DNA of 64,000 bases from NCBI GenBank assembly GCA_964634905.1, contig CAZWJO010000001.1, positions 4,479 to 68,478 on the forward strand, in the 5' to 3' direction. The first letter of the stretch is position 1; every line of letters begins with the position of its first letter. A program made the translations under genes and the position numbers. The notes below the pieces were generated by a model. The model had not been told where the DNA came from and did not search any database. It worked only from the letters and a program-made list of their open reading frames with translations. Positions 51,047-63,463 of this stretch are shown one piece after another. The DNA is from an uncultured Sangeribacter sp. GTDB lineage: Bacteria; Bacteroidota; Bacteroidia; Bacteroidales; Muribaculaceae.

Positions 51047-51376
51047 ATGAACATAGACAATGCAAAATCTCAGATGAGGAAAGGAATGTTGGAGTATTGT
51101 GTGATGCTTCTCCTGCGCAAAGAGGCATGTTATACAAGCGATATCATCTCCCGACTTAAAGAGGCTCAGTTGATAGTTGTGGAGGGGACGCTCTACCCAC
51201 TCTTGACTCGCCTTAAGAAAGAGGGCCTCCTTAGTTACGAATGGCGAGAATCAAACCAAGGTCCACCTCGAAAGTATTATCTTCTAACAAGTGAAGGTGA
51301 GGAATTCCTCAGACAACTCGATGAAGTATGGAACGACCTTGCTAATTCAATCAACATCATTAAATCATTTAATTAA
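51047..51376 (+). CDS. PadR family transcriptional regulator
   Basis: QMRKGMLE, EGTLYPLLTRL, GPPRKYY. Confidence 0.95.
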   Translation: MNIDNAKSQMRKGMLEYCVMLLLRKEACYTSDIISRLKEAQLIVVEGTLYPLLTRLKKEGLLSYEWRESNQGPPRKYYLLTSEGEEFLRQLDEVWNDLANSINIIKSFN

Positions 51377-51387
51377 CCCCCTCAGTT

Positions 51388-53049
51388 ATGAAAAGAAACA
51401 TTACAGTCAATATATTTGGATCTCTTTATCCGATGGATGAGGATGCTTACGCCATGCTCAATAGTTACATTTCTAACATGCGTGAATATTTCTCTCGCCA
51501 ACCGGATGGGAAGGAAATTTCCGATGATATCGAAGGGAGAGTGGCAGAACTAATGTCTGAACTTCGGCAGAATGGAACTGAAGCTATAAGCATAGAACAT
51601 ATACAAGAAATTATCGAGAGAGTAGGCAAACCCGAACAATTCTTAGAGGAGGAAACAGAGTCGATAAGAACTGATATACCACCTTTACCCCCTTCTATAG
51701 TTAAGAAAAAGTTATTCAGAGATCCGGAGCATAAGATGATGGGGGGAGTCTTCGCGGGTCTCGGATGTTATCTTGGAGTGAATCCACTCTGGCTTCGACT
51801 GGGATACATACTGATAATATTTTGGTTTTTGATGCTAATGCCCAAGACTTTGCCCTTAATACTTCTATTGATATGCGCATATTTTGTTTGTTGGGCTTCC
51901 ATTCCAATCGCAGCTAATCCTGCTGATAGACTCCAAATGAGAGGCGAGCCGGTCAATCTTTCCAACATGTGCGATGAGTTTCTTACATCAACAAATGAAC
52001 TCTTCTCTCAGCAATCTTCCTTTGATAAAGATGGAAAATTTGCAGCTGGGCTAATATACATTATGAAATGGCTGTGCTATGCATTTGGAATTCTTTTAGT
52101 AATCTCATGTATTGGTGTATTTATTACAATTGTTTTAAGCGTAGTAGGAGCATTTTCATATCCATGGAGTGCCGCACGTAACTTTTTAGGTGAAGATTTT
52201 CCGATATTGGTTGTGCTTGACAGTAGTCCTAACTGGTTGATTTGGACTGCTATTATCAGTCTTTTGAGTTTTATTGGATTAACTCTTTATCTTACAGTTC
52301 ATTTTATCTTCAAAATACTCGGTCGTGTGCGCCCTTTGAGCACCTCTCTTAGAGTAACATGTATGATTTTCTGGATGCTATCAATAGTTGTCTGCACAGC
52401 ATCCTCCACAAAGATTGGAGGAAATGCCGCACATTATTATTACTATATGTCGCATAAGAAGGATACTAAACAGAATAATGAGACAAAGAAAGATAAGGAA
52501 AAGAAGCAATTGATTGAAGCTGGATGGGAAATAATCAAAGACAATAACATTAGGAATTATATTAACAAAGGAGAGCATTATTCAGGTGATAGAAATCTTA
52601 CGTATCTCGACGCAGGTATGCTACATGACGGTCTCAATATGGAATACGAGGTTGAGAAGACCCAGAAGGTTATTCCAGGGACCTATCGACTTGAAGCGAA
52701 AGGAAGAGCCAATGGTATTGGAGCTGAGATTTATGTTGTTGCTGGAGACAGAAAAAGATTATTTCAACCAATTCCAGTATGTGGCAACAAAGGGGGTGGT
52801 ATATGGAAAAATGCTGCAATTGCCTTAGATGCAGACACAGCAAAAATCTTGCCCAATCGCCATTATCTGAATAAGTTGACAAAAGTAAACAATTTACAAG
52901 GTTATGGCTGGACTGACATCGTCATCGATAATATTGTTGTAGGACAAGACAGTATCATAAAATTTGGATTGACTAACGTATCTCCAACACATACATGGGA
53001 TGGAACCTGGCTATCTGCCACTTCTTTTGAGTTGATAAAAAAGGATTAG
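51388..53049 (+). CDS. PspC domain membrane protein with C-terminal extracytoplasmic domain
   Basis: N-terminal DIEGRVAEL...IERVGKPE segment; PspC motif KLFRDPEHKMMGGVFAGLG; several TM helices; beta-rich C-terminus. Confidence 0.88.
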   Translation: MKRNITVNIFGSLYPMDEDAYAMLNSYISNMREYFSRQPDGKEISDDIEGRVAELMSELRQNGTEAISIEHIQEIIERVGKPEQFLEEETESIRTDIPPLPPSIVKKKLFRDPEHKMMGGVFAGLGCYLGVNPLWLRLGYILIIFWFLMLMPKTLPLILLLICAYFVCWASIPIAANPADRLQMRGEPVNLSNMCDEFLTSTNELFSQQSSFDKDGKFAAGLIYIMKWLCYAFGILLVISCIGVFITIVLSVVGAFSYPWSAARNFLGEDFPILVVLDSSPNWLIWTAIISLLSFIGLTLYLTVHFIFKILGRVRPLSTSLRVTCMIFWMLSIVVCTASSTKIGGNAAHYYYYMSHKKDTKQNNETKKDKEKKQLIEAGWEIIKDNNIRNYINKGEHYSGDRNLTYLDAGMLHDGLNMEYEVEKTQKVIPGTYRLEAKGRANGIGAEIYVVAGDRKRLFQPIPVCGNKGGGIWKNAAIALDADTAKILPNRHYLNKLTKVNNLQGYGWTDIVIDNIVVGQDSIIKFGLTNVSPTHTWDGTWLSATSFELIKKD

Positions 53050-58207: not shown

Positions 58208-61200
58208 ATGTCTACATTTAAAATAGCCCAACCAGATTTTTGGTTAGAAATCAGGAAAGAGTACATTATTGAAAATTTTGAAAAACTATTGTATTATATC
58301 AGAAGATATCAATATAACGGTGAGAAAAATTCAGGAAATGGAGAATTTCTCAACACTTGCCGTTATCTTGTTGACCTTGCTGATGAACTTGCTGAGTTTT
58401 CTTTATCCAGGACATTTATTTCTACTCCCGAATTCAAACTCTCTGGGTCTGATATGAATGTTTCTGATGTTTTGGCTTATCGAATTATTGTTGCAGCTAT
58501 TATAGCTTCTCAAAAGATAGGAGAAGACCAGCATTTGCTTATCCGTCGTCTGCTAAATTTGCTTGTTGTGGCACAAAAGATGCCTCATACCGACATTGCA
58601 GACGATTTGATTTATGTAACAACTAATTGTATACGTAAATCTCCAATCATAAACCTGGGTCTGACATGGAATGACATTGAAAATCCGGAGACGTTCACCC
58701 CCATAAGGGTCCTGCATAATCTGAGCCGTACTAAATTCGATGTCAATGGCGGTAAAGAGGCTCTTTATGAGGGTAAAGGCACGGTAGTTTTTACTGAGGA
58801 TGAAGTTTTGGCAGCCCCTGTGAATAAAACTGACTTTCTAAAAGGAAATCTTTCAGAATACATATCTCTTGGCAAAGGCATAAAAGTGCTTCTTCCTAAA
58901 AGTGATCACATGAAAAGTCCTGATTCAGTAGATGATGTTGCTGAGGGGATGACATTTATGACAAGGGCACAAGGAGGAGTCAAGACCAGTACAGCTGATC
59001 CTAAAAGGAAGTATGCAGCGGGCTCTATCATACCAGTGAAAATTCGATCGAGCTATGGCGTAAAAGTTGAGGCTGAAACAATCAACAAGGAATATGAGAA
59101 GATTTCAGGAAAAATCAACATAAACCTACTGGAATCTTTAAGATATGCCGATATTTTTCAGGTATTGACCTTTTTTAGCCCTGGTAGACGTCTTTATGTT
59201 GAGTATACTCCAGATAATAAAGAATTCTGTTTTGAATTGAAGGGGGGGTTCAACCAATTCTATCTTGAATACGCCAATCAAATGAGGGGAGAATCTTTAC
59301 CAGGAGTATATATTGGTGACTATTCGGCAGGCACTCAATGGCTTACGGAGGATGGTTTTGTGGTAAATGTGATGGGTAAAATCACTAAAGAAGAGATGCT
59401 TGAGGCAATGGAACAAAGGATTCCTCTAACAATAAGGATTAACTCTTCTAAAGTTATTCCAGGAACTGTTCTGATCAATGGATCTATTATAGATGACATC
59501 GAACTTTATGGGTTGCCAGATCCTATCGTTGATTTGGAATCTTATCAACATGAATGTTTCATTTATATTTTCAGCCAATTCATTAAATATTGCGATGAAA
59601 GCATCCCTCTGACTTCTACTGACTCGCGTATCAATGAAATTGACAGTAGCGGAGTGATGGAGATAAGCAATATCTTAATGAGTCATCAGCGGCTGCTTTC
59701 TGACACGATGCCTCGACTGCTCTGTCTGCAAACAGCTCTCATGCTTTCGATTACAGCAGGCGACTATACTATTAGCGCATATATACGTCATGAACTTGAA
59801 TATCAAATTGCTATAGCAAGATTTGCTGCCGGAGCCTCTCCTATGTCGATTTCTCTGACTCATGGCCCTAATCTCGATGGGATTCTTGAAGTTGAGAAAC
59901 ACGAGCGAATCATCTCAATGCTTCGCAACTACAAGGAGCCAGAAATCGACCATTCCACTGAAAGGATAACTAACGACGAGAATATTGAAGACACTGTTGA
60001 CGGTCTGATAGATGCATCAAATCGACTGATTGGAAAGATTGACGATAGGGAAATATCACGTATCAAACTTGAATTGGCACGAACTCTCGATGTCGATGAT
60101 CAATATAGAAGTCCGGATTTAACAACTTATTACGGTGTTGAAAGCGACACTTTAGAGTTCAAGATGTCGGCTGTATGCCCTCCTAAAAATAAATTGAAAG
60201 GGTCGGCTGAATATGAACCTGATACTCAAAAATGGGCAATTCTAAAGACTATATGCGGCTTTCTGAATTCAACTACAGGTGGAGAATTGCTCATAGGAGT
60301 AAGAGATAATGGCATTGCTTTTGGAATCTCTCACGATTACGATCTCCTATATGAAGATAGAAGAATTCCTGAACCCAACTCTGACCGATATAGGACTTAT
60401 CTGAAGAATATAATCGACAATTCTTTCATTGCTTATAAATCTCGAGCCCAAAAGAAAAGCGTGACAACTGCCAACATCACGTATAATATCGAGATGAACA
60501 ATGAAGGGCTTGAAATTTTACGCATCCATGTCGACAGCTATCGCGGTGATATGGTCCATTTCCATCCGGATTGCCGTCGGCCCGAAGAAATACATGAATC
60601 TTATATCCGGACAAGTGGGGCTACCGTGCCGATGAGCCATGAGGTGCGTGATCAGACCCTGTTGAAGAAGTATCATCTTGCAGGGGATAAGGAAGGCGTC
60701 GGAATGGCTGCCATTTACGAGGCTCGAAACTCTAAGAAACGCGTTCTTCTAAAAGAATATACGTCAAGGAGCGGAGTGAAAGACCGTGAGATAGAAGTGT
60801 TTCAAGTGTTTCCAGAGTCTAAATGTATCTTAGCTTACGACGTGGCAGCCCGTGATGTCCGTCTATTCAAAACTTTGAGATGGAAGGATGCGAAAATACT
60901 TGACAAAAACTGCACTCAGAGCAGTAGTTCGAAGAGAGATCTCCGTCCTGATATTTTTGGATTCGTGTTTGATCCATCCAAACCCATATATAATGTCGAG
61001 GTACGCCTGACCCACTACGGTGCATTGCTTCTTCAGGAAGAATATCCAGGTGCTGAATCAGTTTTGACTTTGACTGGACACAAGGAATATCCATGGCTCC
61101 TGACTCTAAGCTTAAATACTTTAGAGGGTATTGGAAGGTTTGTTAGGGGTCTGCCTTCGGAATGTTTGGTCGATAAAGGCACAGATCTTGGATCTATGAT

Positions 61201-61210
61201 ATTTATTTAA
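58208..61210 (+). CDS. Multidomain protein: unknown N-terminus (possible S1/OB folds), Schlafen/AlbA_2 domain, WYL and WCX domains
   Basis: AlbA_2 motifs ESDTLEFK, ICGFLNSTTGGELLIGVRDNG, YIRTSG. WYL-like AIYEARNSKKRVLLKEY...REIEVF...ILAYD...VRLFK. WCX-like DIFG...LLQEEYP...GIGRFVRGL. Confidence 0.8.
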   Translation: MSTFKIAQPDFWLEIRKEYIIENFEKLLYYIRRYQYNGEKNSGNGEFLNTCRYLVDLADELAEFSLSRTFISTPEFKLSGSDMNVSDVLAYRIIVAAIIASQKIGEDQHLLIRRLLNLLVVAQKMPHTDIADDLIYVTTNCIRKSPIINLGLTWNDIENPETFTPIRVLHNLSRTKFDVNGGKEALYEGKGTVVFTEDEVLAAPVNKTDFLKGNLSEYISLGKGIKVLLPKSDHMKSPDSVDDVAEGMTFMTRAQGGVKTSTADPKRKYAAGSIIPVKIRSSYGVKVEAETINKEYEKISGKININLLESLRYADIFQVLTFFSPGRRLYVEYTPDNKEFCFELKGGFNQFYLEYANQMRGESLPGVYIGDYSAGTQWLTEDGFVVNVMGKITKEEMLEAMEQRIPLTIRINSSKVIPGTVLINGSIIDDIELYGLPDPIVDLESYQHECFIYIFSQFIKYCDESIPLTSTDSRINEIDSSGVMEISNILMSHQRLLSDTMPRLLCLQTALMLSITAGDYTISAYIRHELEYQIAIARFAAGASPMSISLTHGPNLDGILEVEKHERIISMLRNYKEPEIDHSTERITNDENIEDTVDGLIDASNRLIGKIDDREISRIKLELARTLDVDDQYRSPDLTTYYGVESDTLEFKMSAVCPPKNKLKGSAEYEPDTQKWAILKTICGFLNSTTGGELLIGVRDNGIAFGISHDYDLLYEDRRIPEPNSDRYRTYLKNIIDNSFIAYKSRAQKKSVTTANITYNIEMNNEGLEILRIHVDSYRGDMVHFHPDCRRPEEIHESYIRTSGATVPMSHEVRDQTLLKKYHLAGDKEGVGMAAIYEARNSKKRVLLKEYTSRSGVKDREIEVFQVFPESKCILAYDVAARDVRLFKTLRWKDAKILDKNCTQSSSSKRDLRPDIFGFVFDPSKPIYNVEVRLTHYGALLLQEEYPGAESVLTLTGHKEYPWLLTLSLNTLEGIGRFVRGLPSECLVDKGTDLGSMIFI

Positions 61211-61218
61211 TATTTAAG

Positions 61219-62184
61219 ATGGAAACAGATAAGATCAAAAAAGATATGATGGAGTTGTGGAAAGAGACCTTCCATGACTCCTTTCATTATATAAGACTCG
61301 TTTTTGACACTTATTTCACCCCGGATAATGCTTTTACTGTCTACGACGGAGAAAAACTTATAGCCGCTTTATTAGGAGTGGAATATGAATTCTATGTCCT
61401 CAATGAGAATAATCAGACTATTAGTTTGAAGGGATTATATTTATGTGGCCTTGCAACTCATCCGGAATATAGGAAAAGGGGAATAATGGCTAAGCTGATG
61501 AACGAAGCTGAAATTTCTGCCAAGTCAAGAGGATTCTCAATATCATTTCTCATTCCTGCTGATTCTCATCTTAGGGAGTATTATTGCAAAAAAGGATATG
61601 AGACTACTTCATTCAGGCTAATCAAACAGATCTCCAGGACTTGCTTTGACAACAAGAGTAAAATGAATATTTATACATTTCGGTACTTCTTCGATGAAGG
61701 AAATTATGATTTTTTGAACGAACTGGCACAATGGTGCAGAGAGAGAGAAAAGCCAAATTTAACGTATGTGTCACTCAAGCATTCGAGGAAGGATTTCGTC
61801 ACGATTATGTTAGAAAATGAGAATTCATTTTTTTTGACCGAGCCATCATTCGATCCAAAATATCCGATTCTCGCAAAAGTGAGGGCAGTGGTGTTTCCGG
61901 CAGAGGTAGATGAAAAGAATCATCGATGGAGAATAGTGGGAATCTTCCTTAGAGATGTTGAAGAGTTTTTTAGTGAAAAGGAGGAAGATTTTAGGTTTTC
62001 CTCAGAGATCTTTTCAGCTATTCAGAGCCTCCATTCAGAATGTAAACTTGAACTTTGTCTATCATATATAGGAACCCTAAGAGGTGAAGTTGAGCCCTAC
62101 GCAATGGTCAAGTTTTTAGATAGAGATGAAATAAGTGATAATTTTGAGAATCTTCCTTTCAATATTTCTTTAATGTTGGATTGA
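61219..62184 (+). CDS. GNAT family acetyltransferase
   Basis: LWKETFHD, YLCGLATHPEYRKRGIM, LIPA, YYCKKGY. Confidence 0.88.
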   Translation: METDKIKKDMMELWKETFHDSFHYIRLVFDTYFTPDNAFTVYDGEKLIAALLGVEYEFYVLNENNQTISLKGLYLCGLATHPEYRKRGIMAKLMNEAEISAKSRGFSISFLIPADSHLREYYCKKGYETTSFRLIKQISRTCFDNKSKMNIYTFRYFFDEGNYDFLNELAQWCREREKPNLTYVSLKHSRKDFVTIMLENENSFFLTEPSFDPKYPILAKVRAVVFPAEVDEKNHRWRIVGIFLRDVEEFFSEKEEDFRFSSEIFSAIQSLHSECKLELCLSYIGTLRGEVEPYAMVKFLDRDEISDNFENLPFNISLMLD

Positions 62185-62231: not shown

Positions 62232-62278
62232 CCCCAAAATGCTTGCATTCAAGCATTTTGGGGCAATTATTTTTTTTT
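62232..62278 (+). terminator. Terminator after the GNAT gene
   Basis: Perfect 14-bp stem CCCCAAAATGCTTG-CATT-CAAGCATTTTGGGG followed by a T-tract. Confidence 0.8.
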
Positions 62279-62434
62279 ATTTTCAAGAGCAATGAGAGAA
62301 TTTGATTAATGAGCCATTCGCACATCATTAAATTGGTCAAATTTTCAGTTTTATCAATGATCGGAGAAAAATAGGGGAGGGGAGGACTGGTCAAAAAGAG
62401 AACTTCATTTATAGTTCAATATACGCAAATTAAA

Positions 62435-62930
62435 AATTTGCAATTTTAATTTTAAAATGCACATTTGCAATTCCAAATACCAAATAAAAGTGACTTGATT
62501 TCAAATTACGAATTTCAAATAGCAAATACTTATATGTCGATTAAGAAAAGGTCTAAATTGCAAATTTACTTTTCAAAACGTTTGCAAATACATTATAAAA
62601 CGAATTAACATTTATTAATATTTATTTTAATTACTCTTTAATCAATAAATTAGCTATAATACTTAATTAACATTTTTAAATTCCTGTATTTTCTTTGCTG
62701 TATTTTATATCTCCTTTTATGACTTTAATAAACTCGCTAAAAGTGGCTTTGATTATCATCTAAATATAGCTAACCTCTATAATTAATTTTAAAAATCAAA
62801 TTTGCAAAACTTAATAGATGGTTCTGTAAGTTGCAATTTGCAATTTTAAAATTTAAATTCAAAAACTCATTTCTAAAATTTGAAATTTGCATTTTTTTTT
62901 GTAACTTTGCAACTCTAAAAATAAATGCAA
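62435..62930. repeat. Two clusters of 7-bp-periodic TTGCAAT-like repeats in AT-rich DNA
   Basis: Eight exact TTGCAA palindromes (62438, 62465, 62558, 62582, 62802, 62831, 62838, 62907). AATTTGCAATTTTAA occurs at both 62435 and 62835. Confidence 0.75.
62902..62909 (+). promoter_or_regulatory. -7 promoter element of the HTH gene
   Basis: TAACTTTG about 30 bp upstream of the ATG at 62942, overlapping a TTGCAA unit. Confidence 0.65.
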
Positions 62931-62941
62931 ATATTGAGATC

Positions 62942-63463
62942 ATGGAGGAAAATTTCGCCACTCGTCTAAAACTCTTTATGGACAGTATTAACGTACAGTC
63001 CTCTCAGTTCGCAGATATGTGCGAAATTCCTCGTCCTTCTTTCTCTCAGCTTCTTTCCGGACGCAACCAAAAGGTAAGTGATACACTTATCAAAAAGATC
63101 CATACTGCTTATCCTGATCTCTCTGTCATGTGGTTGATGTTCGGCGAAGGTCCAATGCTGTCGGTGCCAGATAAAAATAGAAACTCAGGATCTAATCAAA
63201 ATCAAAATCCTCCTGATGATTCTTCAAATTCTAAAGATTTGCTTGGTAATACCCGGGAAAATTCTGAATATTACGCTCAGAATGTCTTAAATCAGCCTCA
63301 AAATCTAACTAATGGTAATATATATCAGCAACTTGAAGAAAACAAGAAAATCCTGGAACTACAGCTTCAAATAGACAAAATGAAAAAAAATCCCCGAAGA
63401 GTGGCTCAGATCACTGTTTACTACGATGATTCTACCTTCGAAACCTTTGTCCCGGCTAAATAG
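62942..63463 (+). CDS. XRE/Cro-C1 helix-turn-helix protein with low-complexity linker and C-terminal beta-hairpin motif
   Basis: RLKLFM...SSQFADMCEIPRPSFSQLLSGRN...WLMFGEGPM; N/Q/S-rich linker; ends RRVAQITVYYDDSTFETFVP. ATG at 62942 (TTG at 62831 lies in the repeat array). Confidence 0.85.
   Translation: MEENFATRLKLFMDSINVQSSQFADMCEIPRPSFSQLLSGRNQKVSDTLIKKIHTAYPDLSVMWLMFGEGPMLSVPDKNRNSGSNQNQNPPDDSSNSKDLLGNTRENSEYYAQNVLNQPQNLTNGNIYQQLEENKKILELQLQIDKMKKNPRRVAQITVYYDDSTFETFVPAK

Follow-up and report, generated by a model that had tools for sequence, protein, structure and literature searches.

Organization of the locus

The window analyzed here is a stretch of 64,000 nucleotides (nt) from an uncultured Sangeribacter sp. 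of the Muribaculaceae (contig CAZWJO010000001.1), and the subject of this report is one of its genes, a single unbroken open reading frame (ORF) at 58208..61210 on the + strand that, from the ORF list and its translation, encodes a protein of 1000 amino acids (aa). The protein carries, in order, a helical/S1 module, a Schlafen (AlbA_2) nuclease domain with an intact active site, a WYL domain, and a WCX domain. The features of the gene are the following (OB, oligonucleotide/oligosaccharide-binding; AF2, AlphaFold2).

58208..61210, + strand: the whole gene (P0001), in the order helical/S1 module, Schlafen nuclease, WYL, WCX
58208..58642, + strand: N-terminal helical region, aa 1-145; helices 17-142 in the AF2 model, part of a helical scaffold
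58646..58975, + strand: beta-rich domain, aa 147-256; strands 184-230 in the model
59003..59257, + strand: S1/OB-fold domain 1, aa 266-350, with KYAAGSIIPVKI; structure match
59261..59512, + strand: S1/OB-fold domain 2, aa 352-435, with MRGESLPGVY; structure match
59534..60085, + strand: second helical block, aa 443-626; packs against the N-terminal helices, with a disordered loop at 580-589
60140..60634, + strand: Schlafen/AlbA_2 nuclease; aa 645-809 by Pfam, structural domain ~637-823
60140..60163, + strand: catalytic motif Ex4ExK, E645-S-D-T-L-E650-F-K652, with invariant E645/E650/K652
60680..60943, + strand: linker helices and WYL Sm-like beta-barrel, aa 825-912; PADLOC, profile, and Hfq/Sm structure matches
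60950..61207, + strand: WCX domain, aa 915-1000, with the predicted dimer interface; PafC alignment and structure matches

Pfam searches of the whole protein and of four segments of it, at E values up to 1-10, detected no helix-turn-helix (HTH) family anywhere in the 1000 residues and returned no WYL, WCX or S1 match; an NCBIfam scan of the protein gave no match. The WYL/WCX and S1 domains were recovered only through PADLOC, profile and structure searches. A preliminary description made from the sequence alone had proposed the same single-ORF layout, with nucleotide coordinates for each domain that prove correct to within a few codons, and had seen no N-terminal HTH, in agreement with the Pfam searches.

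A Schlafen nuclease domain with an invariant catalytic motif

The Schlafen domain, which the preliminary description placed from about residue 645, is recognized by the Pfam model SLFN_AlbA_2 (PF04326) over aa 645-809 with an E value of 9e-10 and a score of 39.6 bits, against a gathering cut-off of 25.3. The acidic catalytic residues to which that description drew attention, in E645-SDTL-E650-F-K652 and GVR-D700-NG, are present and are conserved across the family. In an alignment of 106 family representatives that are 22-72% identical to the query, E645, E650, K652, N687 and R801 are invariant (106/106), and D700 and D726 are each kept in 105. SLFN11 and the bacterial Schlafens, or pSlfns, use Ex4(E/D)xK as their catalytic motif (bioRxiv 10.1101/2025.07.24.666596). 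The invariance of a motif that is catalytic in these proteins across 106 divergent representatives argues that the family is probably under selection to retain catalysis.

Structural comparison leads to the same class of enzymes. In the AF2 model of aa 630-1000, which has a predicted local distance difference test score (pLDDT) of 92.4, residues 637-823 were aligned by VIA-align to the AlbA_2 domain of DIP2311 (3LMM) with Z 11.9 and a root-mean-square deviation (rmsd) of 3.0 over 135 aa, and to the tRNase of SAMD9 with Z 11.2-11.8 (Z 11.2 for 9O0D). The catalytic C-lobes of SLFN11, SLFN13 and SLFN14 aligned with Z 8.9-9.5, rmsd 2.5-3.0 and 20-24% identity; among these are residues 197-340 of the SLFN11 C-lobe in 7FEX (Z 9.5, rmsd 2.9 over 119 aa, 21% identity) and SLFN13 5YD0 (Z 8.9).

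The C-terminal WYL-WCX module

The region following the nuclease was identified as a WYL-WCX module by several routes. The PADLOC WYL model matched aa 832-910 (E 2.5e-6); the Pfam WYL model missed the query and matched several of its full-length homologs of ~30% identity. A profile built from 68 family sequences found BrxR (7QFZ, E 1.9e-5) in the Protein Data Bank (PDB), as well as PafB and PafC, the PafC alignment spanning profile positions 820-993. With the aa 630-1000 model as query, Foldseek returned PafBC at E 2e-8 and DriD, BrxR and CapW at E 1e-7 to 1e-5, and VIA-align superimposed residues 825-1000 on the WYL and WCX domains of PafBC, CapW, DriD and BrxR with Z 12.1-12.5; Hfq/Sm barrels aligned to residues 201-272 of the same model with Z 7-8. 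The WYL signature is maintained in the long forms of the family described below, with Y851 in 67/68, R860 in 58/68, E863 in 64/68 and R891 in 66/68, and S853 is conserved too. PADLOC, the profile and the model of pLDDT 92 thus agree on the WYL-like domain that had been placed at ~60700-60900, and the PafC alignment and the structural match, which runs to residue 1000, bear out the WCX-like domain placed at ~60945-61200. The preliminary description would have given up its reading if the C-terminus did not model as WYL/WCX; in both Foldseek and VIA-align the C-terminus matches the WYL regulators.

In sequence, this module is close to transcription regulators. The query tail shares 29% identity (E 7e-18) with a 299-aa Bacteroidota protein composed of HTH_11, WYL and WCX according to Pfam, and the family profile matched Bacteroidota regulators of ~300 aa and the same Pfam composition at E values down to 5e-48. 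In the genomes examined, such HTH_11-WYL-WCX regulators of ~300 aa occur at loci L040-L055 (Bacteroidota genomes G393, G381, G509, G261 and others; E 1e-29 to 5e-48), and one of them lies directly 3' of a histidine kinase gene (L043). The simplest history suggested by these similarities is that the sensor half of an HTH-WYL-WCX regulator was captured, with the Schlafen domain replacing the HTH. The protein does not belong to the WYL regulator family itself, since it lacks the N-terminal winged HTH that defines that family and the segment preceding the WYL domain is the Schlafen domain. It is a carrier of a WYL sensor rather than a WYL transcription factor.

Residues 630-1000 were predicted to form a homodimer with an interface score (ipSAE) of 0.43, compared with 0.01 for the best control; of the solved structures used for comparison, 20 of 30 homodimers and 1 of 23 monomers scored this high. 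The homodimer runs share at least 33% of their contacts, the partner pLDDT is at least 81, and the predicted contacts involve WYL residues 852-856 and 888-891 and WCX residues 936-944 and 976-983. WYL regulators have been solved as such dimers, so the score may reflect likeness to known folds.

The N-terminal helical/S1 module

The N-terminal module, modelled as aa 1-640 (pLDDT 92.1; predicted template-modelling score 0.85), is a helical scaffold bearing two, possibly three, S1/OB domains, and it is this module that defines the family. The scaffold is formed by helices 17-142 together with helices 443-626, the latter corresponding to the helical block noted in the preliminary description. W12 and F539 are invariant in the family alignment; Y19, N23 and Y30 near the N-terminus and L572, Y575, L600, N605, I619 and K620 in the second block are nearly so. 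Likeness of the scaffold to ALIX/Bro1, to the tetratricopeptide repeats of Rap/NprR/PlcR and to similar folds was rejected, as the Z values (5.8-7.2) lie below the noise level for helical folds.

Both of the beta-rich segments previously guessed to be S1/OB folds match S1 folds in the model. VIA-align gave Z 6.3 for domain 1 against the S1 domain of aIF2-alpha (over 265-350), and, for domain 2, Z 7.4 against the S1 domain of Escherichia coli RNase R (5XGU; residues 352-428, rmsd 1.9 over 62 aa) and Z 7.3 against the TRAM domain of MiaB. Taken as a tandem, residues 258-426 aligned to the tandem S1 domains of bS1 (8WI9_b) with Z 8.8 and rmsd 4.5 over 144 aa, and residues 258-435 to bS1 28JW_a with Z 8.3 and rmsd 4.1 over 155 aa; Foldseek matched the aa 1-640 model to bS1 with E 2e-4 to 5.5e-4. 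The Z values for bS1 and RNase R are near the VIA-align noise ceiling of 7-8, but they come from consistent matches that take in whole domains. The look-alikes of the S1/OB part in the ESM Atlas are S1-repeat proteins, and Atlas proteins with multiple S1 domains span query residues 51/65-437 at low template-modelling scores of 0.22-0.30. The Pfam S1 model (PF00575) did not match aa 250-440 even at E 10. A third OB/S1-like unit may be present in the beta-rich aa 147-256, as judged from the model; this piece gave no convincing match of its own. Matches to HIN-200 proteins (E 4e-3 to 5e-2) were set aside, the tandem OB folds alone accounting for them. A Protein Atlas feature search with aa 1-640 returned the same family alone, at scores of 0.77-0.79, and no fusions to other effectors.

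A rare family in which the WYL-WCX module is optional

An exhaustive HMMER search recovered 148 clusters (50% identity) at E <1e-30, nearly all of which align end to end. The named members are proteins from Muribaculaceae or Muribaculum metagenome-assembled genomes (MAGs), and the NCBI labels of the homologs read 'ATP-binding protein' or 'putative DNA binding domain-containing protein'. Full-length homologs are 66-92% identical to the query in Muribaculaceae MAGs and ~30% identical elsewhere, and the family is confined to gut Bacteroidales. An ESM Atlas cluster annotated as SLFN_AlbA_2 in 100% and WYL in 72% shows that the combination of Schlafen and WYL domains is already present, uncharacterized, in databases.

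The family falls into two length classes. Long proteins of 938-1033 aa that carry WYL-WCX account for 68 of the 106 representatives, and the other 38 are short proteins of 800-839 aa that end just past the Schlafen domain. In a FastTree phylogeny of the shared part, long and short forms are intermixed, well-supported branches force at least 10 changes between them, and the deepest clades are all long; the tree was rooted at its midpoint and has local support values only, and it does not fix whether WYL-WCX was lost or gained. Downstream of one short form lies a convergent gene, and the module has therefore not simply been split off there. The N-terminal module and the Schlafen domain make up the constant core of the family, to which WYL-WCX is an optional addition; the partner that always accompanies the nuclease, and its primary one, is the S1/helical module. 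The absence of WYL-WCX from about one third of the family marks it as an added regulatory or dimerization layer. The interpretation offered in the preliminary description is accordingly retained in part: its domain architecture stands, and the idea of the WYL sensor as sole switch of the RNase in cis is weakened by the 38 representatives devoid of WYL-WCX and the repeated gains or losses on the tree.

The gene is accessory, rare and patchy. Any match was found in 13 of 151 Muribaculaceae species genomes and a full-length one in ~7; within the genus of the window, one of five other species has a match, at just 30% identity. With the N-terminal profile, the family was detected in 3 of 400 Bacteroidales genomes drawn from across the families of the order, and the full profile gave no full-length match among 400 Bacteroidota genomes. 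Five congeners keep an iorA-iorB-aminotransferase-CoA-transferase operon, which in the window precedes the Schlafen gene, with nothing related to that gene after it. The homologs of 92% and 67% identity lie at the same locus as the query, and the 70% homolog at a different one. A gene universal and syntenic in the family and devoid of RNase activity, toxicity and phage protection had been named at the outset as grounds for rejecting the reading; this gene is neither universal nor syntenic across the family, and the patchy distribution envisaged for it was borne out by the survey.

Genomic neighbourhoods

No partner gene is conserved across ~15 independent loci, as would fit a single-gene system. 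Three homolog loci are clearly rich in defence or conflict genes, and the remainder are housekeeping in character. P0093 lies among type I restriction-modification (R-M), Abi_C, McrBC, reverse transcriptase and HisKin-conflict/iREC genes; P0090 near genes for an S1-SACS giant protein, a helicase-PIN protein and a second AlbA_2 protein; and P0078 near helicase, kinase, AAA and NADAR/ADP-ribosylglycohydrolase genes. For six further loci the neighbours were pooled: most have housekeeping functions (ClpB, Hsp70, enolase, DNA polymerase III alpha), and type IIG and type I R-M genes are present among them. One homolog immediately precedes a Y-family polymerase gene (IMS/IMS_C), and another is beside DNA_alkylation and RmuC genes. 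The defence-island setting anticipated in the preliminary description thus holds clearly for three homolog loci and not for most contexts; overall, roughly one third of the independent contexts count as defence islands.

Two of these loci contain clusters of their own. A co-directional cluster upstream of P0090 (L032, 1-9496) comprises genes for a 1851-aa S1+SACS protein, a helicase-PIN_4 fusion, a 427-aa protein, an AlbA_2-HATPase_c_4-HTH protein and a DUF7255 protein; the cluster has the look of a conflict island and encodes a further giant protein with S1 domains. On the strand opposite to P0078 (L065, 13189-22467) are genes for a protein kinase, an AAA ATPase, a UPF0227-like protein and two NADAR proteins, one of them fused to an ADP-ribosylglycohydrolase, which may constitute a conflict system based on ADP-ribosylation. 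The genome of the window has two more AlbA_2/Schlafen genes (C80:969-1358 and C86:2874-3263, in open frames of 565 and 538 aa), and their size suggests that they are of the common AlbA_2-HATPase_c_4-HTH type.

In the window, a GNAT gene (Acetyltransf_9, 61219-62184) starts 8 nt after the Schlafen stop codon. No terminator-like site was found between the CoA-transferase, Schlafen and GNAT genes, so the three may be co-transcribed; just past the GNAT gene, at 62232-62263, there is a strong terminator-like hairpin whose 14-bp stem includes 7 G-C pairs and which precedes a T-run. Compared with GCA_001701075, the GNAT protein is 55.6% identical, the Schlafen protein 91.5%, and the products of the flanking genes 71-97.6%, and the GNAT gene is probably unusually fast-diverging or replaced. 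Farther downstream, a highly AT-rich intergenic block (62400-62940; 27-31% GC) with many TTGCAA(A/T)TT-like repeats lies upstream of a small HTH gene (62942-63463) that is found at 47-60% identity in 5/5 congeners, where GNAT-domain ORFs of 426-708 aa adjoin the same HTH gene. The GNAT gene was considered as a partner or antitoxin and rejected, as it is absent beside the 70% homolog and the GNAT-HTH pair occurs in congeners that do not have the Schlafen gene; the HTH gene was rejected as a regulator of the system on its presence in all five congeners. Both are thus neighbours rather than components. Elsewhere in the window, a PadR-PspC pair (51047-53049) separates the acyl-CoA dehydrogenase gene from iorA. 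The contig of the 92% relative, collinear in other respects, lacks the pair, and iorA directly follows the dehydrogenase gene there (L011, 4690 to 4965); the two genes have thus been inserted or deleted between close relatives.

Relationship to known systems

The nearest characterized proteins are the pSlfn1-55 set (RorSlfn5, DUF262-Slfn; Perez Taboada et al., Nat Microbiol 2026, PMC13056530), whose fusions protect against phage by tRNA cleavage. Like these, the protein described here has one AlbA_2 domain with Ex4(E/D)xK fused to a presumed sensor, is encoded by a single gene, and has a partial link to defence islands: in that survey 69.6% of bacterial Schlafens have a defence gene within 10 kb (PMC13056530), and the picture is mixed for this family. 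Its Schlafen domain is central, whereas that of pSlfns is N-terminal, and its partners are the 640-aa helical/S1 module and WYL-WCX. Neither partner appears in the main text or in the parts of the tables of PMC13056530 that were available, and either could be listed elsewhere in that survey; a WYL fusion is not mentioned in the text of PMC13056530, of PMC13462974 or of the survey of bacteriophage exclusion (BREX) systems. In Cash (Csx15-Schlafen), a type III CRISPR-associated protein, binding of a ligand at a dimeric sensor opens the nuclease (PMC13462974). Cash shares the combination of a Schlafen tRNase with a fused dimeric ligand sensor and is the template for the mechanism proposed below; its sensor, however, is the Rossmann-like Csx15, which binds cyclic tetraadenylate (cA4) and drives filament formation, whereas the sensor here is an Sm-like WYL barrel, is expected to bind single-stranded nucleic acid and has no CRISPR linkage.

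The regulators PafBC, DriD, CapW and BrxR (PDB 6SJ9, 8TP8, 9C5G, 7QFZ) share the WYL barrel and WCX domain and the Y/S/R/E/R signature, and for the present protein a dimer through WYL/WCX like theirs is predicted; the DriD and CapW WYL domains have been solved with bound single-stranded DNA (ssDNA), according to the PDB titles. In the present protein the Schlafen domain stands in place of the winged HTH, and the output would be enzymatic rather than transcriptional. Human SLFN11 has the same catalytic fold and motif (Z 9.4-9.5 and 21-24% identity to C-lobe 197-340), and its tRNase is activated by binding of ssDNA (as cited in PMC13056530), a conceptual parallel in that ssDNA sensing is coupled to tRNA cleavage. 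SLFN11, however, has two lobes per chain and senses ssDNA with its helicase domain, whereas the protein described here has one lobe per chain and a WYL domain, and a likeness in logic, if any, would be convergent. AlbA_2-HATPase_c_4-winged HTH proteins (pSlfn1/2, COG2865 type), one of which adjoins P0090, possess the same nuclease domain and differ in their accessory modules, as their GHKL ATPase-like and HTH domains are not shared. Since the principle of a Schlafen effector with a fused sensor is already published, the novelty here is limited to a variant of it.

Discussion

The domain composition of the 1000-aa protein is that of an effector joined to modules that bind nucleic acid, and most likely it is a stand-alone RNase of phage defence or of a stress response. 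More specifically, we put at roughly 0.55 the probability that it is a pSlfn nuclease acting alone and gated by its fused nucleic-acid-binding modules. A role in defence or in the shutdown of translation is plausible by analogy to the Schlafen fusions described in 2025-2026 as phage-activated tRNases, and from the presence of some of the homologs in defence islands. Several observations weigh against it. The strongest is the setting of the gene in this window, which is housekeeping, syntenic and slowly evolving. The gene begins 55 nt past the metabolic operon with no predicted terminator between them, and it is syntenic in its own clade, where its identity of 91.5%, compared with 85-97.6% for its metabolic neighbours, is unlike the divergence of many fast-evolving defence genes. 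Most other contexts are housekeeping as well, S1 domains are also typical of housekeeping RNases, and gating by WYL cannot be the general mechanism of a family in which 38 of 106 representatives do without WYL-WCX.

How such a gate might work can be proposed from three precedents: the opening of Cash at its dimeric sensor, the structures of DriD and CapW with ssDNA, and the activation of SLFN11 by ssDNA, which together suggest that a single-stranded nucleic acid bound by WYL resets the dimer. Dimerization would occur through WYL-WCX, as in WYL regulators, and the WYL barrels would bind single-stranded nucleic acid, either phage replication intermediates or ssDNA or single-stranded RNA (ssRNA) derived from damage. 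Ligand binding would then re-orient the two Schlafen domains and open an RNA-binding channel, while the S1 domains could hold the RNA substrate or serve as a second sensor. Mammalian Schlafens require two lobes, or a dimer, to clamp tRNA. The enzyme would cut tRNA, possibly rRNA, and the resulting stop of translation would abort the infection or arrest growth. Since many relatives have no WYL-WCX, the module would modulate rather than constitute the switch, which would reside mainly in the N-terminal module. That the WYL domain itself gates the enzyme in cis, with a WYL-WCX dimer bound to ssDNA or ssRNA turning on a Schlafen tRNase aided by the S1/OB domains, is a tentative proposal that we hold to be doubtful.

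A stress-related version of the same machinery deserves consideration, in which the protein is an effector of DNA damage or replication stress rather than an anti-phage system, the WYL domain sensing ssDNA produced by damage and the Schlafen RNase slowing translation during repair. The C-terminal module is structurally closest to PafBC and DriD, damage regulators that sense ssDNA; the homologs upstream of the IMS/IMS_C polymerase gene and beside the DNA_alkylation and RmuC genes would suit such a role, as would the many loci outside defence islands. The patchiness of the gene even within a genus is, however, unusual for a general stress response, and the WYL-less forms could not use a trigger in which ssDNA is bound by WYL. 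On balance a purely damage-related role seems unlikely to us. The damage and phage readings overlap and are inseparable by sequence, as phage replication also yields ssDNA; were the former true, the protein would be a bacterial functional analogue of human SLFN11.

The protein might instead be a lineage-specific housekeeping nuclease of RNA processing or decay, in which the S1 domains bind cellular RNA, like those of RNase E, RNase R and PNPase, and the bound RNA is cut by the Schlafen domain, either constitutively or under regulation. The resemblance of the tandem S1 domains to bS1 and RNase R agrees with this, as do the metabolic and core neighbourhood, synteny within the clade and slow evolution of the gene, and the mostly housekeeping neighbours of the six other loci. 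Such a nuclease would not be expected to go undetected in ~95% of the sampled Muribaculaceae species and 99% of the sampled Bacteroidales, nor to vary in locus among relatives, with members in one genus just 30% identical, and a ligand-sensing WYL domain would be unexpected on a constitutive enzyme; we regard this role as rather improbable. Less probable still, in our estimate, is that the protein acts on DNA or another substrate, or serves mainly as a scaffold or regulator that binds nucleic acid, and is not an RNase. DNA binding is seen for the AlbA_2 domains of SLFN5 and SAMD9 too (PDB titles 7KSP, 'hSAMD9_DBD with DNA', and 7CUX), and the NCBI name for homologs, 'putative DNA binding domain-containing protein', points the same way; yet Ex4ExK, on whose residues SLFN11, RorSlfn5 and Cash depend to cleave tRNA, is invariant, catalytic C-lobes of tRNases rank among the best structural matches, and S1 domains favour ssRNA.

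To our knowledge, bacterial Schlafens were shown to be phage-activated tRNases only in 2025-2026, with few types of sensor studied (an Ig-like domain, Csx15 and Argonaute), and we know of WYL domains almost solely as ligand sensors of transcription factors. A Schlafen-WYL-WCX fusion offers a test of whether a WYL domain can relay ligand binding to an enzyme and of what it senses, for which the WYL-less sister proteins are natural controls. Gating in cis, if true, would be the first WYL-to-nuclease allostery within one polypeptide and a bacterial, convergent counterpart of the ssDNA-activated tRNA cleavage of human SLFN11. The protein would be of local interest only if it proved to be a housekeeping RNase, and of greater interest if WYL-to-nuclease allostery were demonstrated. 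As a nuclease gated by its fused modules, it would add a defence or stress gene family to the Muribaculaceae, which are dominant yet poorly studied gut bacteria, and would serve as a bacterial model of how human SLFN11 couples ssDNA to tRNase activity.

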